In this document: positions 5 to 40,529 of the stretch, in pieces
How the letters are laid out: the number at the start of each line of letters is the position of its first letter
Numbering within the stretch: the first letter of the stretch is position 1
Made by a program: the position numbers and the translations under genes
The notes under the pieces: model-generated
What the model saw: only the letters and a program-made list of their open reading frames with translations
What the model was told of the DNA's origin: nothing
Database searches by the model: none
Source of the DNA: Fistulifera solaris
Taxonomy: Eukaryota
Direction: 5' to 3'
Length of the DNA stretch: 64,000 bases
Assembly: GCA_030295235.1 (NCBI GenBank)
Contig: AP026125.1
Span: 2,170,001 to 2,234,000, forward strand

Positions 5-1312
5 TTGTTTCATCAACATCCTAATTCGATTCATCCTTCTTCAGGACAACACATACGACCATTGGTGCAGGCACATCAGTACAAACTCCGACATGCACAA
101 ATCATCCAGCGAAGCCATATTGTGCATCCTGTGGCTCCACCCTTGGGCTGTTTTCATTCCGTAGGGTCTGTGTATTCGAATCAGATGGATACTCCTACAA
201 GTGATTCGGACGCGCCGAAATGGATCCTTCAAGTCCATTGGGAAGGACCTCAACCACTCCACACGGCTTATTATGATATCGGATGGTTACAACAGTGTCA
301 TACTATGAGCTTACATGATAATGACAAGTCGAGTATCCACGCAAATAAAACGATTGTCACGCAACAAACACAACTCCTCTCCTTTGATCATGACAAAGTC
401 CTACGACACGACGACAACTTGTTTCGGCTCTTACGATCCTTGCTGGAGTACGGAGCTGTCTTAATCGAAAACACGCCCAATACAGACACGGCCTGTGCCA
501 ATATTGGCAAACGACTTAGTGGAGGCACATTGTCACATGGATCCTTGTATGGAGATGTCTTTGACGTCCAATCAATACCCAATGCACACAATATCGCCTA
601 CACCAATGATGCTCTTGCCGTACACCAAGATTTGGCGTATTATGAATCACCACCGGGCTTTCAGTTGTTGCATTGTCGGACGAATACCGTGACGGACGGC
701 GGAGCTTCGCTCTTGATCGATGCCTTGGCGGCCGCAGAAACATTGGCCAATCTAGCACCGGATCTGTTTGCTACATTGACTCGTGTACCGGCCACCTTTT
801 TGAAGCAACGTTCCGGGGCGGATATGATGTACCGTCGTACCCATATTCGTGTATCCGAACACAATCGCACTGAAGTATTGTCGGTGCACTGGGCTCCTCC
901 TTTTGAAGGTCCATTGTTTTCGTCGTCTGAAGAAGACACTCGCGAGTACTTTGTGGCCCGTGCCGCCTTTGAACGCATGCTGGATGTTTTGTTACCGCGT
1001 CAAGAACGATACTTGCCAATGCTCGATCGGCAGTTGGAACAACAGTTGATCGATTACGCTCATAACTATACCTGGCAACAAACCTTACAGCCGAAGCAAA
1101 TTTTGGTGTTTTCCAATCAACGACTCTTGCATGGTCGAACCGCTTTTCGTATTGATACAGCGAATGGGGGTACCCGTCACTTGACGGGATGCTACACAAA
1201 TGTGGACGAGACGCTGCAACAATATCGTTTATTACGAAGACAGCGATTGCGAGGCGCACAAGACCTTGAAGCTTTGCCGGTGATGGGGCATGGCAGTCAT
1301 CGAATTTCGTAA
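5..1312 (+). CDS. TauD/TfdA-family 2-oxoglutarate dioxygenase (gamma-butyrobetaine dioxygenase-like); probably 5'-partial at the window edge
   Basis: HxD motif (VHQDLAYYESPPGFQLLHC), distal His/Arg motif (NQRLLHGRTAF, RHLTGCY), and the N-terminal H-P-S-S-G-Q / W..HTAYYDIGWL segment typical of BBOX-like proteins. Confidence 0.88.
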   Translation: MFHQHPNSIHPSSGQHIRPLVQAHQYKLRHAQIIQRSHIVHPVAPPLGCFHSVGSVYSNQMDTPTSDSDAPKWILQVHWEGPQPLHTAYYDIGWLQQCHTMSLHDNDKSSIHANKTIVTQQTQLLSFDHDKVLRHDDNLFRLLRSLLEYGAVLIENTPNTDTACANIGKRLSGGTLSHGSLYGDVFDVQSIPNAHNIAYTNDALAVHQDLAYYESPPGFQLLHCRTNTVTDGGASLLIDALAAAETLANLAPDLFATLTRVPATFLKQRSGADMMYRRTHIRVSEHNRTEVLSVHWAPPFEGPLFSSSEEDTREYFVARAAFERMLDVLLPRQERYLPMLDRQLEQQLIDYAHNYTWQQTLQPKQILVFSNQRLLHGRTAFRIDTANGGTRHLTGCYTNVDETLQQYRLLRRQRLRGAQDLEALPVMGHGSHRIS

Positions 1313-1432
1313 TCGAATCTGTATACAAATAGAATTGGATTCAAAAGGGTCTTGTAATTAATTCTGATGTTTCTAGCATTAGTAGCGATGCTCGCGAATC
1401 TTCATGTTCCTCTTCAACTTATTTTGTATGAT

Positions 1433-2050
1433 TTACAAATCCGGCACATCGACGAGTGCATCAAAGAAATCTTGTACCAAATCATTCATTTTCTGTGCCA
1501 CTAGAACGAATCCAGTCGCATCTTTTGCACTGACAGGCACATCGGCTGCTTGTGCATATTGTCGCAATTTGTCGGCATCTTGTAAAGCTCGTTGTTTCAT
1601 GTCGGCACTTTGAATGGTCCCTGCTACCACTTTCATATCATCTCCAGCGAGTGAATAGATTTGGCGCAAGAATTTTCCGACATTATCCCATTCGGCGGCA
1701 TCCATTTCGCTGGAATTCTCTTGTACTCGCTTTGTTACCTTTTTCAGATCACGTTTCAACCGAATGCATCGATTGAATTGAGCCACACCTTGGGGTAATT
1801 CCGTGCCGGAATAGACATCGGCATGTGCGATAGTAGGCTGTTGCGTAATCACTGCCGTTGTAGTCAAAGCTGCCGTGAACATTCCTTGTAAGAATCTTTG
1901 TCGATTCATTGTTGTTGTGGAGAGGGATGCCGATTCAGAGACGGCGGAACGAGAACGAAGGGTATCGGAAGCTGTGGCACGAGAAGTGACCCAAGCCATT
2001 GTTGCCGATGGCAACGCCACGAGAACCAATACAGAAGCGGAGACCCTCAT
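1433..2050 (-). CDS. Plastid/thylakoid lumen protein, PsbQ-like helical bundle
   Basis: Signal peptide MRVSASVLVLVALPSATMA-W, Ser/Arg transit peptide, Tat-like NRQRFL plus hydrophobic stretch ending AHA, then a helical domain (EWDNVGKFLR...DFFDAL). Confidence 0.65.
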   Translation of the reverse strand: MRVSASVLVLVALPSATMAWVTSRATASDTLRSRSAVSESASLSTTTMNRQRFLQGMFTAALTTTAVITQQPTIAHADVYSGTELPQGVAQFNRCIRLKRDLKKVTKRVQENSSEMDAAEWDNVGKFLRQIYSLAGDDMKVVAGTIQSADMKQRALQDADKLRQYAQAADVPVSAKDATGFVLVAQKMNDLVQDFFDALVDVPDL

Positions 2051-2467
2051 GCTGAACACAGGAAAGAAATACTAGTGATTGTTGATTGCTTATTCGTAAT
2101 GCGTAATGCCTGTTGTGTGATCTTGTTGGTAATAATTGTGACGAAGTTGTTTGTTGTTTTATTATTTTCGAGTCAGAATCTGACGCATGTCCACAGTTAC
2201 ACATTTGAGTACCGCAGTGATGTCTTTTCGAAGCGCTAGCTATGGGGAGTATGAGGACGATACGTTTGAAAACAACTAGGACTACACTGAAAGATGGACT
2301 ATTGAAGAGGCGAAATCAAAATATTTACGGATGCGTAAAATGTTTTCGTTTTCTTTTCATTACTGGTACGCCGCTACACTCAACAGATCATCTATTAATC
2401 GTCACTCGACAAGGATTCGTTTTTGTTCATCGTCTCGTCAAACTCAGTTAAATCACCCGCATTCTCT

Positions 2468-3568
2468 CTATTTGCATCCCGCACTAGCCCGAGTGTCTAC
2501 GCCGGTTACCGGATTCGTGCCTTGTAACGTCGGATTCTTACACAAGGACCGACTATCGAAATCGCCCATGTACGCATCGGAAAAGTCGGTATTCTCCAAA
2601 TTGCTTTCTTCAAAGCTGGTGCCCGTCAAGACGGTATTGACAAACAAGGCACCACGTAACGAAGATCCTCGGAAACTCGCGCGATCGACTGACAAAAGAA
2701 AAGCGATTTACATCCGTGAGAGAAGAACTCGAATTGCTGATGCGAGGAGCTGAATGCACTTGGTACGTACCAATGGCGTTGGAAAAGTCAGAATCATCAA
2801 ATATACTATCTGTAGTGTGGTGAAACATCAGAAGCAAGAGAGTGTGAGAAAGCATCGTTACAACATGCGTTGCGTGTGAGCGATACGAGGATTAAAGAAT
2901 CCATTAATCTTAACTGCGACCTCAGCAACTTACCATGTAGATAAGCTTTACTGAACTGCGCATCTTGAAAATTGGATTTACGCAAATCCGTTTTCGTCGT
3001 AATCACACCCGACAGATCATAGCCTACCGCCTTTTGTTCAGGAATGTTGCAAGCTCGCAAATCGTACAGTTTGTCGCGTGCCGCGTTGGCTTGTCCGATA
3101 CTCGATGATTTCAAAACACAGCGGTTGGGGTCCGAATAGTCAATGGGTGGGAGTTTGAATTTGGAAGTTTGACCTGTAGATTGTACAGAGGAACGGAAAA
3201 AGGCATAAGATTGAGAACAGCAGGCAAACACAAGCAAAAAACAATCAGCGCCATGCGTTGATGTCATTTGATCATTATGACTCACCATCCGCCAAGGCCG
3301 CGCCCGAAAAGAGACTCCATGCGACAAACGCCGATGCGGTTGCAACAGAAAAAACGTTTGGATTGTTGTTGGCGATGTTACTCTTTTTCTGTAGTGAAGT
3401 GTTGCGGCTAACGCTGTCATTATTTTCTTTGTTGAAAAGACCCATGATGGTACCCTTTGTTTGACTCAGTGGCTTTGTCGTCAAAGGAGTCGTAAAAGAT
3501 TCGACAGAGTGACTGTTCGAAAGAAGGATCGTCAAAGTCATCATAAAAACACGACGAAGGTAAGTCAT
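2468..3568 (-). CDS. Thylakoid lumen pentapeptide-repeat protein (TL17-like), 4 exons
   Basis: Exons ~3568-3286, 3173-2934, 2809-2771 and 2688-2468 join in frame at GT-AG introns. Signal peptide and AALA lumen cleavage site; pentapeptide repeats (SNFQDAQFSKAYL, ASFRGSSLRGALFVNTVLTGTSFEESNLENTDFSDAY); C-terminal LCKNPTLQGTNPVTGVDTRASAGCK. Confidence 0.88.
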
Positions 3569-4241
3569 GATGGCGTTTTCTCGTTCGACTTTTGAGGTTT
3601 AAAAAAAGACGTAATGAAAGCGTTTCGTAGCAGTACGAAGGCAAGTTGTATTATTTGTAGCAACAACAACAATCAACAAGTCAAAGGTATGAATGATTGC
3701 GATGATCTGGCAAATCAAGCAACTTCGGTATCGGTCGGTTCGCGATCTGTTTTGTGTTGGATGATGCAAGTGACGTAGGCCGACTGATCCGTGATTGACA
3801 ATCACGCCAATATTCTGTACGGTAATCTGTACCGACGACGACACGACCTCCTCGCCGTCCCGGCAATAATTTCTCAACAAAAAATTGACAATGATGCGCG
3901 CTGCGACCTGTTTGTCATTTGAAAACTGCGTGGGTGTTGGCGTGTTGAGAATTGAGAAAAGGAAAATAAAGTGAATATTGTACGTCGAACGCTATTCGTA
4001 CTTCAGTATTGCTATTTGATTGTTAATGTGACTTGCAGTTGCTAACGAAAATAATGAGGAAACCGGCGAAGATTACCTCTGCGAGATCTCCTTCTCCGAC
4101 GCCGTCCGAGACGATCTTTGTACCTCCTTTGTTGCTTCTGTACTCTTCTTCTCGTTCCAATTTGTTTCCACTTTTCCCTTTCTTCTTTCTCTCGATTTTT
4201 ATTTTTCATCTAACGGCCATTAACTACAGATTCATTTTGAA

Positions 4242-4733
4242 ATGAAATGCCGCTCGAATCGATCTATCTCTTTTCTACGGATCATTCTCATTACGTTGGG
4301 TTGCACTTTTATGACTACGAAAGCCAATGTCATAAAACCACAGCTCAAACCTCGATTGGTGTTACAGCCGTTGATTGGCGGACCATCGTGGCTGAAAGTA
4401 CATGTTCAAGTGCATCTCGTGGAGCTAGATGACAACGGCGACAACAGAATCAAGAACCCAATACGCCACAAATTTGATTTTGTACCACTTAATCCTTCAG
4501 ATCCTCGTACACTCGCTCGATTATTGACACTACAATCGGTACCGGGAGAAATACGGACCTTTCAATCGACGCACCAGCCCAGTCTGCGGTTTTGTCAACA
4601 ATACAACAACAACGAACTGCATTTGATATTCAATAATTGCTGGATCTTTGCTGCGAAACTATACTGGTATTTATTGCAACAGCAAGAGGAGAAGATTGAA
4701 GATGCGAATTCATTTGAAAAGACGAAGCAATAA
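4242..4733 (+). CDS. Hypothetical protein, possible permuted papain-like (PPPDE/LRAT-type) fold
   Basis: 163-aa ORF with an N-terminal hydrophobic segment, an early His strand (KVHVQV) and a late HLIFNNCWIFA motif. Confidence 0.5.
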   Translation: MKCRSNRSISFLRIILITLGCTFMTTKANVIKPQLKPRLVLQPLIGGPSWLKVHVQVHLVELDDNGDNRIKNPIRHKFDFVPLNPSDPRTLARLLTLQSVPGEIRTFQSTHQPSLRFCQQYNNNELHLIFNNCWIFAAKLYWYLLQQQEEKIEDANSFEKTKQ

Positions 4734-4955
4734 GCTCTCCATGGATCCATGGAGCATTTAGACAGCATGTACTTGGGTCGATCGATAGAAACGATCAGCA
4801 CACACATCTCTGTGTGCTTACATGGTCAGTTACAAACTACACGTTGAGTATAAGAAAATGTGCATGGAACTTTTACGGGCTTATTTGGCTCTCCGTTATC
4901 AAGAATCTGCTAATGTCAAAGAATTGTTCTTATGTTTTGATTTTCCATTGACGAC

Positions 4956-6254
4956 TTACTCGCGGCGACTTCCCGAGTTGGAGGTCGAGGGACTATCAGC
5001 CGAATCCTTGCTGGCACTCGCACTAGCTAGGTTGCGGCGGCTTCCCGAGTTGGAGGTCGAGGGACTATCAGCCGAATCGTTGCTGGCACTCGCACTCGCT
5101 AGGTTGCGGCGACTTCCCGAGTTGGAGGTCGAGGGACTGTCAACTGAATCGTTGCTGGCACTCGCACTCGCTAGGTTGCGGCGGCTTCCCGAGTTGGAGG
5201 TCGAGGGACTGTCAACTGAATCGTTGCTGGCACTCGCACTTGCTAGGTTGCGGCGACTTCCCGAGTTGGAGGTCGAGGGACTATCAGCCGAATCGTTGCT
5301 GGCACTCGCACTCGCTAGGTTGCGGCGGCTTCCCGAGTTGGAGGTCGAGGGACTGTCAACTGAATCGTTGCTGGCACTGGAACTCGCACTTGCTAGGTTG
5401 CGGCGACTTCCCGAGTTGGAGGTCGAGGGACTATCAGCCGAATCCTTGCTGGCACTCGCACTCGCTAGGTTGCGGCGACTTCCCGAGTTGGAGGTCGAGG
5501 GACTGTCAACTGAATCGTTGCTGGCACTGGAACTCGCACTTGCTAGGTTGCGGCGACTTCCCGAGTTGGAGGTCGAGGGACTATCAGCCGAATCCTTGCT
5601 GGCACTCGCACTCGCTAGGTTGCGGCGGCTTCCCGAGTTGGAGGTCGAGGGACTGTCAACTGAATCGTTGCTGGCACTCGCACTTGCTAGGTTGCGGCGA
5701 CTTCCCGAGTTGGAGGTCGAGGGACTATCAGCCGAATCGTTGCTGGCACTCGCACTCGCTAGGTTGCGGCGGCTTCCCGAGTTGGAGGTCGAGGGACTGT
5801 CAACTGAATCGTTGCTGGCACTGGAACTCGCACTCGCTAGGTTGCGGCGGCTTCCCGAGTTGGAGGTCGAGGGACTGTCAACTGAATCGTTGCTGGCACT
5901 CGCACTCGCTAGGTTGCGGCGGCTTCCCGAGTTGGAGGTCGAGGGACTATCAGCCGAATCGTTGCTGGCACTCGCACTCGCTAGGTTGCGGCGACTTCCC
6001 GAGTTGGAGGTCGAGGGACTATCAGCCGAATCGTTGCTGGCACTCGCACTCGCTAGGTTGCGGCGACTTCCCGAGTTGGAGGTCGAGGGACTGTCGACAG
6101 AGTCGTTGCTGGAGCTTGCAAGATGACGCTTGCGCAACATCACAGGAGCTGTCTCATCCAAATCGTTGCCGAACTCGTTGTTGCTGGCAACTGCTTTTGA
6201 TGTTGCGCCTGTCAAAGAGAAAAGGAATAAGATGGAAGCAGTTGGAAACTTCAT
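4956..6254 (-). CDS. Secreted Ser-rich repeat polyprotein with RRNL processing sites (silacidin/silaffin-like precursor candidate)
   Basis: Signal peptide MKFPTASILFLFSLTGATSKAVA, acidic propeptide ending RKRHL, then 16 peptides ASA(SS)SAS[N/K]DS[A/V]DSPSTSNSGS separated by RRNL. Confidence 0.85.
   Translation of the reverse strand: MKFPTASILFLFSLTGATSKAVASNNEFGNDLDETAPVMLRKRHLASSSNDSVDSPSTSNSGSRRNLASASASNDSADSPSTSNSGSRRNLASASASNDSADSPSTSNSGSRRNLASASASNDSVDSPSTSNSGSRRNLASASSSASNDSVDSPSTSNSGSRRNLASASASNDSADSPSTSNSGSRRNLASASASNDSVDSPSTSNSGSRRNLASASASKDSADSPSTSNSGSRRNLASASSSASNDSVDSPSTSNSGSRRNLASASASKDSADSPSTSNSGSRRNLASASSSASNDSVDSPSTSNSGSRRNLASASASNDSADSPSTSNSGSRRNLASASASNDSVDSPSTSNSGSRRNLASASASNDSVDSPSTSNSGSRRNLASASASNDSADSPSTSNSGSRRNLASASASKDSADSPSTSNSGSRRE
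4959..6119. repeat. Coding tandem repeat, 72-bp unit (78-bp variant in 3 copies), 16 copies
   Basis: Near-identical units ...cttcccgagttggaggtcgagggact... read directly. Confidence 0.97.
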
Positions 6255-7099
6255 GTTGAATCAGTTCTTGGTTTGAGATGTGCTTTTAGAAAGATCTTGC
6301 TGAAAACTGTGCGACGAAAACAAAATGATGAAAAAGTGAAAGGATCCAAAAACTCGGTCGTTTTTCCGTCTTACGTCGCTCACCTCTAGACACAGTTTTT
6401 GGAATTAGTATGATGGCAAACAGTAAAGAAATCACGCACGACTGAAGTATGATGCATCTTGTGGCCGATGTCCAATAATTCGAAATACAAAAGATTGCGG
6501 CCGCAATCTTGCTTTTTTCGCTGGTATCTTCGTGCATGTTGAATTGAAAGATTTATGATATACTCCGTTTTCGCTCACGAATAAGGTCTTGTAGTTGTAG
6601 GAGCTGATTAAGTACGATTCGATCTCGAACGAAATCCGGACTATCGCAAGTCGTCATCCATCGTCGTGCGCGTGATCGGAGTCTACATGGAAGTGTGAAA
6701 GCGTCGTATCATCGTTCGCACAACGGCTCGATGAGAGGGGGACGGCAGAGATGCAAAATGATGAGTTGAATCATCATTAGCAAACAATGAGCCAGTCAAC
6801 GCTTTCATAGATTGAAGTCGATCTGCAGATGTCGTCGGTTGCGAGCCCTCGAAACATCGCTGCCAAGGGCCGATGATGATTCAACTAAACTTCAAACCGA
6901 TGCAAGGCGCTCCGCTACATTGGCATGAAGTCAAATCGCCATCGGCGTTGTCTCTTCACTACACCCATCGTGCGAATAATTCGTGTCAGAGCAAGCATCG
7001 TTCCGCCACGGAGAACTTCGGGACGCAACGATGTGCGAACAATTATTTGATCGAAACGTAACATTCTACGTAAATGAATACAGACTACGACACACCACT

Positions 7100-8420
7100 T
7101 TAAACTGCGTGGAAAATAGTTTGGTACCTAACATCCACGTAACCTTTTTGTCGGGCTTTCATCCAAATCGCGACATATCGAAACAGGCAGCACTTATCGC
7201 CTCGAGTATCTTGCAGTACGACATGCTCCTCTAGACATCCATTATGCATGTATTCACACAACACGTCCGTGTGAGTCGATAACAGTAAAGCCGTATGTTG
7301 GAAGTTTTCGAAAGAGCTTTCCAACAACGCCATCGCCACTAACGACGGTCGCAACAGCATAGACTCCTTCATCAGCTGAATGGATCCATGATAAAAGCGA
7401 TTCATTCAATGCATACAGTCTATCGATACTGGATCCATCTCTTGCCATAATGTTCCAATATCGTAATGTTTCGGTTTCTCGAAAGCAATCGCTCCAGCCA
7501 GGAGTACGTAGGATCTTCATCTGATGGGTATTCCCAAAGTGCAAATGTTCGTAGTTCTTTGTGCTCTTCAATTGCATTGAAAATTTGGGGCAAGTACTCG
7601 CCCCAAGTCACATCCCAACAATCACTGGTCACTCTAAGATAGGTCAAATTCGGATTAGCATTTATTGTACGAATCAGTGCTTTTGCAACAGATGCTTTAT
7701 CACGAAATTCATGACCTGACAATAAATCAAATGTAACATCCAATCTTTCAAAATGTCCCAACTCAGCCACTCGGTTTAAAAGCGAAAAGTCAAAAGCCTC
7801 TCCGAAATTTCACCCCCATCATCACCCTCATCAATAAACATGATTGAGAAGGAAGGTGATACAATCTCAAGAAAATCAAAGTCCTCTGGCTGAATATGAT
7901 CCATGTTTATGGCATAGTCGAGAGCCTTTGTCTTGGCGGAGAATGGGAAAAGGGCACATTCTTCATCGACAGCAGGCATATCAAGCCTCTCAAACATTGT
8001 ATCAAGTTTGCGAAGACGTTTCACATTTGCAGGACTGCACAGCATTTTATGGCAATCCCAGGGATTATAAAGCATATAAAGTGAACCGAACCGAGAGCAT
8101 CGACAAACTGCGTCCCGTCATCTTCAAAATAGAAACCGTCGTCTGTGTGACGTGATTCGAAATACAAATTCAAAAGATAGGGGCGCGTTGCAAAGACGAG
8201 GGATTGTTCAGCACTCCAAAGTCCTGTTGAAATTTGGACTTTTCGATTCGGGTTCGAGTCTAAAATATGAGCGAGTTGCTGCGGTGTAATTGCCGCAAAA
8301 CCAAAATTTGGCATCAAGCAATGCTTGTTGATTTCCAAGCAAGAATCACCTTTTCCAGAGCCTTTGAGGGACCAAAAGAGTGTCGCTGTCTCGGCAAAGA
8401 CAGTCTCTCTTTGGCAATCA
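7100..8420 (-). pseudogene. Fragmented, apparently 5'-truncated member of an expanded diatom (Fistulifera-type) RNI/LRR-like hypothetical protein family
   Basis: Consecutive minus-strand fragments (8338-8021, 8075-7776, 7770-7420, 7405-7100) read as one protein across frameshifts: AETATLFWSL, QLAHILDSNPNR, ALIRTINANPNLTYL, YSWLERLLSRNRNITI, NRFYHGS...LLLSTHTDVLCE. The 5' part abuts the tandem array. Family assignment is from recall; some indels may be sequencing errors. Confidence 0.55.
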
Positions 8421-8517
8421 ACGCTTTCACTTTCATGATATTCGACTGCAATACGTCAACGCATAAAACAACGCAATTTAATTGACAAAACTAGGAAGAT
8501 ATTATTATGACACTTCC

Positions 8518-10512
8518 AGCTTCCAGTGTCTACGCGTATGTTACGTAGCCGTCGTAGGAAATTTATCTCTGTAGGAGAACCCGGAAATTGCCTTTTTCAC
8601 CGTCGTCCAGTTCTTGGGTTTCCAGTCCACAGATGTCAACGTTTTGTTGCGCACCGTAATTGCTTCGTATTGGAAAACAACAATTGCCACCGACTTGAAA
8701 ACTGAACGTTGAGGGAGCGAATGATGCAACGCTTCGAACGTCTACGTGATTTCACGTAGCTCTCGTAGGGAAATTTATCGACAGAGGGGCAACCCGGATA
8801 TTGTTTAATTTCGATCACACCATTTTACGCGTCTTTTGGACACCAATGTCAAATATACTTAACCCAACATGATTCATACGAGCCATGAAACAATCAATCA
8901 TCCACCTTGATTGGATAGTAAAACTTGAAACAGTAGAAAGATAAAACACTTCCAATGTCTACGCGTATGTTACGTAGCCGTCGTAGGAAATTTATCTCTG
9001 TAGGAGAACCCGGAAATTGCCTTTTTCACCGTCGTCCAGTTCTTGGGTTTCCAGTCCACAGATGTCAACGTTTTGTTGCGCACCGTAATTGCTTCGTATT
9101 GGAAAACAACAATTGCCACCGACTTGAAAACTGAACGTTGAGGGAGCGAATGATGCAACGCTTCGAACGTCTACGTGATTTCACGTAGCTCTCGTAGGAA
9201 ATTTATCGACAGAGGGGCAACCCGGATATTGTTTAATTTCGATCACACCATTTTACGCGTCTTTTGGACACCAATGTCAAATATACTTAACCCAACATGA
9301 TTCATACGAGCCATGAAACAATCAATCATCCACCTTGATTGGATAGTAAAACTTGAAACAGTAGAAAGATAAAACACTTCCAATGTCTACGCGTACGTTA
9401 CGTAGCCGTCGTAGGAAATTTATCTCTGTAGGAGAACCCGGAAATTGCCTTTTTCACCGTCGTCCAGTTCTTGGGTTTCCAGTCCACAGATGTCAACGTT
9501 CTGTTGCGCACCGTAATTGCTTCGTATTGGAAAACAACAATTGCCACCGACTTGAAAACTGAACGTTGAGGGAGCGAATGATGCAACGCTTCGAACGTCT
9601 ACGTGATTTCACGTAGCTCTCGTAGGGAAATTTATCGACAGAGGGGCAACCCGGATATTGTTTAATTTCGATCACACCATTTTACGCGTCTTTTGGACAC
9701 CAATGTCAAATATACTTAACCCAACATGATTCATACGAGCCATGAAACAATCAATCATCCACCTTGATTGGATAGTAAAACTTGAAACAGTAGAAAGATA
9801 AAACACTTCCAATGTCTACGCGTATGTTACGTAGCCGTCGTAGGAAATTTATCTCTGTAGGGGAACCCGGAAATTGCCTTTTTCACCGTCGTCCAGTTCT
9901 TGGGTTTCCAGTCCACAGATGTCAACGTTTTGTTGCGCACCGTAATTGCTTCGTATTGGAAAACAACAATTGCCACCGACTTGAAAACTGAACGTTGAGG
10001 GGGCGAATGATGCAACGCTTCGAACGTCTACGTGATTTCACGTAGCTCTCGTAGGAAATTTATCGACAGAGGGGCAACCCGGATATTGTTTAATTTCAAT
10101 CACACCATTTTACGCGTCTTTTGGACACCAATGTCAAATATACTTAACCCAACATGATTCATACGAGCCATGAAACAATCAATCATCCACCTTGATTGGA
10201 TAGTAAAACTTGAAACAGTAGAAAGATAAAACACTTCCATTGTCTACGCGTACGTTACGTAGCCGTCGTAGGAAATTTATCTCTGTAGGGGAACCCGGAA
10301 ATTGCCTTTTCACCGTCGTCCAGTTCTTGGGTTTCCAGTCCACAGATGTCAACGTTCTGTTGCGCACCGTAATTGCTTCGTATTGGAAAACAACAATTGC
10401 CACCGACTTGAAAACTGAACGTTGAGGGAGCGAATGATGCAACGCTTCGAACGTCTACGTGATTTCACGTAGCTCTCGTAGGGAAATTTATCGACAGAGG
10501 GGAAACCCGGAT
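8518..10512. repeat. Tandem array of a 428-429 bp unit, ~4.6 copies
   Basis: Anchor ttacgtagccgtcgtagg at 8541, 8970, 9398, 9827 and 10255 (periods 429/428/429/428); copies nearly identical. Confidence 0.97.
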
Positions 10513-23515: not shown

Positions 23516-23670
23516 TAACAAGGCGAGGATTGATTACGAAAGGTTACTTTGTTGCGTTGTCACTGCAATTTTAAGACTATTCAAACATGTACTTTTTGGG
23601 TAGAGGAGAACTATTAATTTGTTTTTCAATATGCATCTCTAAACTGTTGGCACCATGTTAACTTTGGTGC

Positions 23671-24891
23671 TCAATTGGCGAGCGCCATTTTAGGCAAAGA
23701 TCCTAGAATATCCTTCAACTCCTCACCGAGTTCCTCATCCTCCTCGCTCCAATCATCATCTTCAGAGTCGTACTCGGAATCATCATCGTCGTCGTCGTCA
23801 GAGTCGTCAGAGTCGTCATCAGAGAAATCGGCTTCGCTCATATCAGCCGTCTTATCATTGTCCTCCAACAGCATGCGAGCTTCTTGGGGGCTGAGTTTAC
23901 CGGCGGCAACCATGCCCGCCATGTCATCAGGCAGGGCGTCCTTGGGATTTTCCACAAAGCGGGTGTGGGGTCCAATCTTCACAAGTTCTGGCGGACCTTG
24001 TTCCCCATCCTTCGCTACAGAGCGTTTGGGCCAATACTTGTCTTGGTTCTTTTCTAAGAATGCAATCCAGTCCCCATAATGCTCCTTACGAACGTAGTTC
24101 AAAGGGCAATGGCCTCGCGCATCAATCATATGAAACATTCTCACGTCGAATTTCAGAATTTCTTCTACAACCGGAAAAGCAGGCTCCGCAGCCCAACAAG
24201 CATCATGCAATGGGGTGCGACCGTAATCATCCGCGGTGCGAAAGTCGCAACCACGTTCAAGCAAAACGTCCATCATTGGCTTGCTACCATGACGGCAAAC
24301 AGTGTGCGCAACCGATTCATTGTACTGATTGCAGGGGTTGGACGAGAGACCAGCCCTCATGAGTTCCTGAAAGTTCTCAACGTCATGGCGACGAATCAAT
24401 CCAATCAAGTGAATATTGTAACTAGCACGCTGGTGAGAAGAAGGCGTGTTGTAATAGCCTGACTGCAGAGTAGGATAGCGCTTCGTCGAGTAGCCACGGT
24501 AGCGTAACATGGCGTCCATGTACGCCTGAGGATTCAACAACTGTCACAGACAAAGCATCAAAAGGAAGGTAAGCATTATGGAGGGTGGAGGTTACTTGAT
24601 ATCAAAACACTCTGTAAAACTTACATTATCGTTGCTGTCTGTCTTGCGAAGAGCCGGACGTTTCTTCGTCTCAGTGGGCGTCTTGACATCAGCCGTTCGA
24701 ATGATTTGACTCTTCTTTCCGCGGCTGAACGAACTCGAAGCTTTCTGGAAAAGCCAGTTGCGGAAAAAGACTTTGTTCGCAGCCTTTTCAGGAGGAGGTT
24801 TGTGAACTTCCTTTCCTCGGTTCGAAGCGAGGAAGACGGCTTGAAGAGCCACGGGGATACGGCTTTGCTTTTTCTGGGGTTGGGCACTCAT
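23671..24891 (-). CDS. Ankyrin-repeat protein with acidic tail (copy A), 2 exons
   Basis: DDYGRTPLHDACW, DARGHCPLNY; intron 24624-24541; Asp/Glu-rich C-terminus. Confidence 0.85.
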
Positions 24892-39572: not shown

Positions 39573-40529
39573 TTAAACCGTTCTGGCTATAACATTATCT
39601 TGTCCTTCCTTTTCTTCGGTGGCAGGTTCATGCCACTGAAAGGCTCGAAAATGATGATTTGTAGAAGGCAATGTATGTAAGGAGTAGTGCGTCAATGCAC
39701 CCAATTGAGGAGACTTATCTACAAAAAGGATACGCCTCACCCGACTGTGCAAAGCCGCCATCCCTTCAAATAGAGAAGGTTCTTGACATGTATACAGATC
39801 AAAGCCAGTACATAAATAGGAACCCGCTGATTGCGTTCGCTCTCTTCGACTGACATTTTGAATCGCATAAATGATATCAGTTTGCAACGGATTGTTAATT
39901 GTATTGTTACTCAAGCATTGTTGCAATCGTCGCTCGACACTAGCCCTTCCGACAACAATGCCCGACGCAGGATCCAGTACTACAATATCCTTTTCCGATA
40001 TTACGTGCTGAATAGTTTTCTCCATCAAGATAATTTCGTCAGGACTGAGGCGTCTAGCTTCTTGCTCTTGTTCGATAGCTAGGTAGCTGACTTTCTTGGT
40101 AGGCCACTTCTCATTCATTCGATTCCACTCAAATTCTGAAATTGGGGGTCGTCTGGGAACATGTACGCGTTGTACTGTGTATTGCTGTGAGCAAAGTTCA
40201 ATTAAGCTTTGACACTCCGAGTGGATTGTTCCTATCAGCACGAGTCTCTGTTCCGTCACCTTTTGACGTTTGAGAACATCACCGTCATGACGTGAAACGA
40301 TAGGTAGACATTTCACTCGTTTTAAGTGCTGCAGTTCCGTGTCTTGTTGATTTTGTATTTGCCGAATGAGCGGGCCGCATAGTTTGGGCTCCACTTGTAC
40401 CGCAAACGCCTCAACAAACAGATCGTCATGGTTGCCATTGTCTTCCTTCGCGGACCCATTTTCGATCCTATCTTTCTGCAATTGCTTGTGCTTTGTTAAA
40501 ATTCCCGGCAGTATCTCCGTAAATGGCAT
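39573..40529 (-). CDS. TAD3: tRNA adenosine-34 deaminase subunit Tad3/ADAT3-like
   Basis: LQHLKRVK, VPRRPP, YLCTGFDLYTCQEP..MAALHSRVRRILF, LHTLPSTNHHFRAF. Confidence 0.82.
   Translation of the reverse strand: MPFTEILPGILTKHKQLQKDRIENGSAKEDNGNHDDLFVEAFAVQVEPKLCGPLIRQIQNQQDTELQHLKRVKCLPIVSRHDGDVLKRQKVTEQRLVLIGTIHSECQSLIELCSQQYTVQRVHVPRRPPISEFEWNRMNEKWPTKKVSYLAIEQEQEARRLSPDEIILMEKTIQHVISEKDIVVLDPASGIVVGRASVERRLQQCLSNNTINNPLQTDIIYAIQNVSRRERTQSAGSYLCTGFDLYTCQEPSLFEGMAALHSRVRRILFVDKSPQLGALTHYSLHTLPSTNHHFRAFQWHEPATEEKEGQDNVIARTV

Follow-up and report, generated by a model that had tools for sequence, protein, structure and literature searches.

A candidate RXL-processed, serine-rich repeat polyprotein on the minus strand of a pennate diatom contig

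In a 64-kb window of DNA from the diatom Fistulifera solaris (64,000 nucleotides (nt) of contig AP026125.1, within which all positions given here are counted), the minus strand between 4956 and 6254 holds an open reading frame (ORF) for a candidate secreted polyprotein, built from 16 near-identical, serine-rich peptide units bounded by the motif RRNL. Our reading, held tentatively and with a confidence slightly short of even, is that of a real, unannotated and lineage-specific gene for a polyprotein which is processed at R-x-L (RXL) motifs and probably associated with the cell wall; its strand, secretion and processing are what we infer. A role of the products in silica formation is plausible by analogy with known diatom proteins, and the description of the locus as a new biosilica peptide system, proposed in the initial annotation, is a reasonable hypothesis drawn from the architecture of the precursor.

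The minus ORF starts with a 45-residue leader (MKFPTAS...RKRHL), which precedes the 16 units. A hydrophobic core occupies leader residues 7-14, with Kyte-Doolittle means of 1.4-2.4 over 9 residues, and small-residue (-3,-1) sites follow residues 16, 17, 19, 21, 23, and 24. By this hydropathy heuristic, the N-terminus is signal-peptide-like in the sense of an endoplasmic reticulum (ER) signal peptide of the type found in the silaffin precursor Sil1p. The adjoining pro-domain is mildly acidic (4 Asp+Glu, 3 Lys+Arg, isoelectric point (pI) 5.5) and closes with RKRHL at residues 41-45. One unit of 22, eleven of 24 and three of 26 amino acids (aa) are followed by a final unit of 23 aa, in which RRE stands directly before the stop codon, and RRNL terminates the other 15 of the 16 units. 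The minus ORF thereby contains 16 R-x-L sites, i.e., 1 RHL and 15 RNL. Two codons before its ATG lies an upstream stop codon (the open frame begins FN-M), the start context reads AAC ATG A with A at -3, and both the start and the stop codon are flush with the repeat array. The array itself was delimited by Tandem Repeats Finder at 4962-6112 with a period of 72, 15.7 copies and 91% matches, in addition to a four-unit higher-order period of 294. Since a single unit was amplified, the periodic RRNL does not represent 16 independent events; what stands independently of the repeat in the minus frame is an N-terminus resembling a signal peptide, an RHL immediately ahead of unit 1, and start and stop codons that abut the array. 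The translation of 4956-6254 bears out the initial annotation in its outline of a signal peptide, an acidic propeptide ending in RKRHL and 16 RRNL-flanked units, the last of which ends in RRE, and the same holds, by count, for the 9 Ser and 1 Thr which it had assigned to the 20-aa core and for its N-D-S sequon in 13 of the 16 units and K-D-S in the other 3.

Five distinct cores make up the array, namely ASASASNDSADSPSTSNSGS in five units, a variant with ...NDSVDS... in four, one beginning with ASASSSAS... in three, one with ...KDSADS... in three and one beginning with ASSSNDSV... in a single unit. With a length of 18-22 residues, the core peptides feature 2 Asp, 0 Glu, much Ala and Asn and approximately 45-55% Ser, as well as one Pro, one Thr, and one Leu per unit, and Lys is absent from 13 of the 16 cores. 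For the predicted cores, the calculated pI amounts to about 4.05-4.2 and the unmodified mass to about 1.7-2.0 kDa, with individual values of 1685.6, 1799.7, 1813.7, 1827.7, and 2001.9 Da for the five variants. In the whole minus protein, Ser accounts for 35.6%, Lys for 1.4% (6 of 432 residues) and Asp+Glu for 8.6%, and KXXK motifs number 0. AlphaFold2 returned a mean predicted local distance difference test (pLDDT) value of 38.7 and no helices, and the minus protein is accordingly described here as predicted to be fully disordered.

The variation between the units points to protein-level constraint on the array. Among the inter-unit variable columns, 10 of 13 are located at codon position 3, excluding the 4 columns which make up the RRE-stop ending of the last unit. 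Unit lengths of 66, 72, and 78 nt occur, with every length difference being a multiple of 3. Moreover, a variant unit in sequencing run X1 differs from the window at five sites (5736, 5745, 5748, 5751, and 5757), 5 of 5 at position 3 and all synonymous. The array is considered to be constrained at the protein level because of this wobble-position variation, the in-frame length differences and the synonymous X1 variants. As only 2 of the 6 frames run without stops across the array, a non-coding minisatellite is therefore unlikely. Judged by this pattern, the repeat array is coding.

None of the listed sequencing runs is recorded as RNA, and two of them (X3 and X4) are read as RNA because of their sparse coverage and a poly(A) loose end. 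The evaluation is based on X1 to X4, with X5 and the small-share freshwater and soil metagenomes X6 and X7 left aside. Run X1, which bears the same organism label, and run X2, a wetland metagenome, cover 29 and 30 of 30 bins, respectively, and are DNA-like. The contigs of both end at 4991 and restart at 6066; thus, short-read assemblies break in the array. In the upstream region of the minus ORF, X1 and X2 contigs carry at full depth one extra T behind position 6512, and the window assembly is probably one base short at this site. In X3 and X4, 7 of 30 bins are covered, with the poly(A) loose end at 7090, and contigs of 38-102 nt match the array with 1-6 mismatches, from which it follows that repeat-like sequence is transcribed in this organism. 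The contigs cover neither 6121-6254 nor anything below 5029, the unique ends of both open frames, and no conclusion was drawn from this. A separate transcript appears on the plus strand at 6725-7090, where both X3 and X4 contain a contig some 365 nt long with its poly(A) tail at 7090. Its longest plus ORF of 62 aa (6873-7061) was not present in the protein collection, and the transcript may be short-ORF or non-coding, divergent from the repeat gene.

Searches for relatives gave no homologue of the candidate. A word-indexed search of 5.8 billion proteins yielded 8000 candidates of 237-756 aa for scoring, none of them at an expectation value (E) up to 1e-3, and when residues 1-70 were compared in this way with shorter proteins, a single candidate and no match resulted. 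With phmmer, 39 matches at E up to 1e-3 (best 76 bits) were obtained among 1.84 billion representatives, and those inspected were unrelated period-24 repeats or true leucine-rich repeats (LRRs). No silacidin-type match was among these 39 proteins, 18 inspected as sequence and 39 by script, with the presence of silacidin in the library being unconfirmed. ESM Atlas offered no usable match for either frame, and Pfam assigned no family to the minus ORF, also with the threshold relaxed to E 10. Scans of metagenome contigs recovered the pattern at 202 stretches with the neighbour protein and at 495 stretches with the target protein, of which 0 were confirmed in either case. Besides, all 18 blastn matches of the array within the window fell inside 4900-6300, i.e., a second copy was not found in the 64 kb. 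In the literature searched, no RRNL-flanked serine-rich polyprotein was found; the string denotes a peptide motif in PMC4557024, and as rrnL a ribosomal RNA gene in PMC8329260, while most other papers containing it deal, to judge from their titles, with mitochondrial genomes.

Two proteins met in these searches deserve mention in their own right. P0130, an unrelated protein of 1094 aa whose N-terminus is not hydrophobic, contains 16 copies of a 24-aa unit with RRNL (..SSPPRRNLTV..). A period-24 RRNL unit can therefore arise independently, which calls for caution against reliance on the motif alone. P0163 (197 aa) combines a signal-peptide-like N-terminus with Asp/Glu-rich segments (23% Asp+Glu) between RRRL, RKL, and RRL sites, a silacidin-like layout.

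Several observations tell against a minus-strand gene and have to be weighed with the other readings of the locus. An exact look-up of both ORFs and of three alternative starts found none of them in a collection of 15 billion proteins, in which the neighbours at 185-1312, 4242-4733, and 39573-40529 are present; the locus therefore appears to be unannotated in public sets. As no relative was found, evolutionary support for the gene is missing. The repeat contigs of X3 and X4 may stem from a different allele or a paralogue, with neither locus nor strand being fixed by them. With regard to the strand, an open frame across the array, which the initial annotation had left unmentioned, exists on the plus strand too. 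The third codon positions of both strands coincide, so that either frame accommodates the synonymous variation. Where units differ by N versus K, the residue changes on the minus strand only, the difference being silent on the plus strand, and codon usage compared with 7 reference ORFs (-0.036 vs -0.030) does not separate the two. On these grounds, the plus ORF could be the real gene, coding for a cytosolic, Leu/Glu/Ala/Arg-rich protein of 24-residue repeats, LRR-like or helical, of which the minus frame would be an antisense shadow. It is open over 434 aa with all variants silent, the N/K site included, except for A/T and one in-frame indel. It reaches 31.1 bits with the Pfam family LRR_EndoS (cut-off 27.9) and, with E limited to 1, matches 52 PDB sequences, most of which are LRR proteins (best E 8e-7). 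Its unit fits 8 of 10 positions of what we take to be the typical 24-residue LRR consensus. Nevertheless, the LRR_EndoS score tracks the number of identical units (none with 3 units, 19.7 bits with 6, and 31.1 with 16), and consequently it reflects a weak per-unit similarity multiplied by identical copies. LRR_1, LRR_4, and LRR_8 are not matched, whereas the control LRR proteins P0128 and P0141, likewise composed of near-identical 24-aa units, match these families with E values between 1e-22 and 1e-114. Posterior confidence is low in the PDB alignments, and the minus ORF, despite a single Leu per unit, attains 75 bits with P0128 and 44 with P0141. As the minus ORF cannot be an LRR protein and still reaches 75 bits, period-24 repeats evidently inflate such scores, which marks the noise level. 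The AlphaFold2 model of the plus protein (single sequence; pLDDT 32.3) shows short helices only, with no strands and no solenoid. With canonical LRR profiles unmatched and a solenoid fold not predicted, the plus ORF was rejected as an LRR protein. Outside the repeat, the minus frame has its signal-peptide-like leader, its RHL site and A at -3 of the ATG, and both leader and RHL would have to be coincidences if the plus frame were coding. The plus ATG is preceded by a pyrimidine (T at -3) and lies close behind a hairpin and, at 89 nt, behind the stop of the same-strand neighbour (4242-4733). Altogether, a coding plus strand has a small probability. A still lower one, which makes it very improbable, is given to the reading that no functional gene is present, the array being either a young 72-bp minisatellite with two stop-free frames by chance or a recently dead gene. 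Such a reading is in line with the missing annotation and relatives, with near-identical units, which imply recent amplification, and with ESM Atlas recognition values that are low in both frames (1150 and 976). It is opposed by the concentration of variation at wobble positions in the array (10 of 13 columns) and in the X1 variant unit (5 of 5), by indels that are all in frame, by the way in which a leader similar to a signal peptide and flush initiation and stop codons frame the array, and by the contigs matching the repeat in two RNA-like runs. If the locus is a gene, its coding strand is quite probably the minus strand.

Assuming the secreted minus-strand polyprotein, the following course of events can be envisaged. 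The disordered precursor would enter the secretory route by means of its ER signal peptide and carry a pro-domain with an RXL site (RKRHL), followed by the 16 units, all but the last RRNL-ended. If the example of Sil1p applies, an RXL-specific endoprotease would cleave the chain behind each Leu, and subsequent trimming of the RRNL tail would release approximately 16 peptides of 18-22 residues in five variants. These mildly acidic peptides would become strong polyanions only if their serines were heavily phosphorylated in the secretory pathway, as is assumed here. In phosphorylated form, they could, like silacidins, provide long-chain polyamines with an anionic counterpart within the silica wall or on its surface. 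The proposal in its full extent, i.e., a raphid pennate system of polyanionic phosphopeptides that arose independently of the centric silacidins and in which a Sil1p-style cassette delivers phosphorylated serine-rich peptides that tune silica deposition together with polyamines, would be a doubtful, albeit interesting, possibility.

The composition of the product also holds points that do not favour a function in silica formation. Lysine clusters are a known silica-targeting feature, and KXXK has been used as a screening criterion (PMC5501833); this feature is absent from the minus protein. Nor was a homologue or a silicon-linked expression found that would tie the locus to silica. Silacidins are rich in Asp and Glu, whereas the cores of the minus ORF are only about 10% acidic (2 Asp, 0 Glu). 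Furthermore, Ser, Pro, Thr, and Gly (PTSG) contribute 210 of 432 residues, i.e., 49% of the minus protein and about 60% of the core peptide, which is in the range of adhesive-trail proteins. According to the accessible part of a study on Craspedostauros, secreted proteins rich in Pro, Thr, and Ser (PTS) with 40-78% PTSG occur in adhesive trails of this diatom, with extensive O-glycosylation being expected (bioRxiv 10.1101/2023.03.06.531300). The same gene on the same strand might hence code for a mucin-like, heavily glycosylated coat, mucilage or adhesive-trail protein, which would remain uncleaved or partly cleaved and have no role in silica. This reading stays alive because of the PTSG content and is further consistent with the 13 N-x-S sequons, the predicted disorder and the raphid pennate host. 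Still, we regard it as unlikely, as the units with one Pro and one Thr each are Ser/Ala-rich and not a classic PTS repeat, the dibasic RXL at every unit boundary, the same as the Sil1p spacer, argues for processing, and Cys-rich or other adhesive-type domains are missing. The gene could also be the source of peptides that diffuse as signals or are bioactive, for instance as pheromones or in allelopathy, and that are freed by Kex2-like cleavage at RR of a multi-copy precursor. Its signal peptide would suit such a precursor, as would the numerous short, almost identical cores with dibasic sites on either side. To our knowledge, a multi-copy Kex2-type signal-peptide system has not been described in diatoms. 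The layout recurs in fungal KEX2-processed repeat proteins (KEPs), which include the alpha-type sex pheromone precursor, as stated in the accessible part of PMC6339444. However, the low-complexity Ser/Ala/Asn/Asp cores without aromatic residues or Cys are unlike typical receptor ligands, and the exact RRNL spacer together with the RXL pro-domain points to the diatom cell-wall processing route, for which reasons a signalling precursor appears quite unlikely.

Table 1. Position of the candidate polyprotein, its parts and accompanying features in the 64-kb window.
Feature	Position	Strand	Basis or remark
Candidate secreted repeat polyprotein	4956..6254	-	ORF, 432 codons + stop
Signal-peptide-like N-terminus, ~residues 1-21 (MKFPTASILFLFSLTGATSKA)	6192..6254	-	Hydropathy and (-3,-1) check; cleavage site approximate
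Pro-domain, residues 22-45 (VASNNEFGNDLDETAPVMLRKRHL), RXL motif at end	6120..6191	-	Composition, split of translation
16 tandem peptide units, residues 46-432	4959..6119	-	15 end RRNL, last RRE; stop 4956-4958
Rival open frame, 434 aa, unit RRLPELEVEGLSAESLLALALARL	4822..6126	+	Shares wobble positions with minus frame
Two perfect palindromes: CTCCATGGA/TCCATGGAG at 4737-4754; AGCACACA-6 nt-TGTGTGCT at 4797-4818	4737..4818	.	

The palindromes sit in the 222-nt gap between the stop codons at 4733 (plus-strand gene) and 4956 (minus ORF), and the second of them, an 8-bp hairpin, stops 3 nt short of the ATG of the plus ORF at 4822. They may serve as 3'-end or terminator-like elements.

The window consists of eukaryotic nuclear DNA with a G+C content of 45.7%. 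Pfam assigns TauD, adenosine deaminase, ANAPC2/cullin, KH/vigilin, and PhoX domains to its large ORFs, whereas tRNA genes were not found in the 64 kb and Rfam families not within 3500-9500. For the TauD-like neighbour (185-1312), 252 relatives at E up to 1e-3 were obtained among 5878 candidates. The best named one belongs to Fistulifera solaris (84% identity) and others to Amphora, Bacillariaceae, Cylindrotheca, Fragilaria, and Fragilariopsis. Since all named relatives are diatoms, the host is placed among the raphid pennates, near Fistulifera. The plus-strand neighbour gene at 4242-4733 codes for 163 aa with a hydrophobic N-terminus and without a Pfam family and is present in public protein sets; within it, the X2 strain shows two synonymous differences to the window, at 4292 and 4574, and a Gln-to-Pro replacement at 4576. 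On the other side of the array, the summed contig depth in X1 and X2 rises from about 10-20 to about 900-6400 across 8359-9000, with many joints and loose ends, and this region gives the impression of a repeat family, dispersed or in tandem, with a high copy number. An identical 55-aa sequence is encoded by the two ORFs 8538-8705 and 8955-9134, the second of which has 4 extra N-terminal residues. Farther away, a plus-strand open stretch of 153 aa at 23618-24076 contains 32% Ser and lies opposite to the ORF 23671-24519 (minus strand); it exhibits no RXL periodicity.

Diatom proteins that shape silica are notoriously unconserved, and the absence of homologues is normal for silaffins and silacidins, which, according to the available text of PMC12533330, are not conserved even within a genus. 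In this setting, a pennate gene that pairs the Sil1p spacer with lysine-free, Ser-rich cores would represent a candidate for the missing anionic polyamine partner in pennates. If this proved true, pennates would have their first component of the silacidin type, and the RXL polyprotein cassette would turn out to be a reusable chassis for cationic or anionic silica-active peptides. If the product were a mucin-like protein or a signalling precursor instead, it would still constitute an undescribed secreted product of a benthic diatom. Moreover, near-identical repeat genes of this kind evade annotation and break short-read assemblies, and genome-based inventories of cell-wall proteins are therefore likely to be incomplete.

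Among known systems, the fungal KEPs resemble the minus ORF in their signal peptide and in many near-identical short cores between dibasic sites, as far as the accessible description goes. They differ by belonging to another kingdom, by a protease logic of KR/RR instead of RXL and by cores that are usually not low-complexity serine strings. Membership in the KEPs was considered and rejected, since the layout with at least 3 cores and dibasic sites fits but the host is a diatom, and the likeness is taken as an analogy only. The Craspedostauros proteins CaFAP1, CaTrailin4, and Ca5609 are, in the available part of their description, secreted, repetitive, rich in hydroxy amino acids and presumably glycosylated proteins of a raphid pennate, as would be the minus protein. 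In contrast, they are large and possess Pro/Thr-rich repeats and in some cases Cys-rich modules, and periodic dibasic RXL sites are not described for them there.

A closer relation in architecture exists to the silica-associated proteins of diatoms, which are compared here on the basis of the accessible parts of the cited papers. In Sil1p, an RXL motif follows the signal sequence, and the RRIL/RRNL C-termini of units R1-R7 are missing from the mature silaffins (PMC4557024), which agrees with the statement of the initial annotation that Sil1p is cut at RRIL/RRNL. Frustulins, cingulins, and silacidins have repeats that terminate in RXL motifs as well, which suggests a dedicated endopeptidase (PMC4557024). 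Likewise, in silicanin-1 some 30 aa behind the signal peptide form a stretch that ends in RRL, is typical of biosilica-associated proteins and is apparently removed (PMC5525289). The minus ORF shares with Sil1p of Cylindrotheca fusiformis the signal peptide, the RXL pro-region, the tandem units, the identical RRNL spacer and the pennate host. However, the units of Sil1p are strongly basic and Lys-rich, with lysines that carry polyamines, whereas Lys amounts to 1.4% in the minus ORF and KXXK does not occur. Moreover, Sil1p has 7 units compared to 16, and a sequence similarity between minus ORF and Sil1p was not detected. As the Lys-rich, polyamine-bearing chemistry is absent, the minus ORF is therefore not a silaffin.

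Silacidins are peptides of about 25 aa which derive from a highly repetitive precursor, are composed of S, E, D, and G with an abundance of Asp and Glu, and are about 60% phosphorylated; their motif is written SEDS.SE (PMC12533330). In the accessible part of PMC5649158, homologues are reported only from centric diatoms and none from two pennate genomes. The silacidins of Thalassiosira pseudonana, which are anionic once their serines carry phosphate, match the minus ORF in their repetitive secreted precursor, RXL sites and short Ser-rich peptides. Regarding these proteins, the initial annotation stands with its RXL-type repeat ends (PMC4557024), while its "RRL spacers" and "DSxDSP-like segment" appear in the available text of neither PMC4557024 nor PMC12533330. 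Its view of a pennate counterpart holds for the host, the RRNL spacer and the near absence of Lys, but with 2 Asp and 0 Glu per core, the silacidin-like polyanion would arise only upon heavy phosphorylation. A repetitive, Ser-rich "silacidin-like" protein was already proposed for Entomoneis vertebralis from its pattern and without silacidin similarity (PMC12533330), so that a silacidin analogue in pennates has been suggested before. That protein differs from the minus ORF in its SEV.S.SE motif, its PT and K...K motifs and its uncertain gene models, and RRNL-bounded units are not described for it in the accessible text. Based on these comparisons, the resemblance of the minus ORF to the silacidins would be one of function and not of membership, and its predicted peptides can be called at best loosely silacidin-like.

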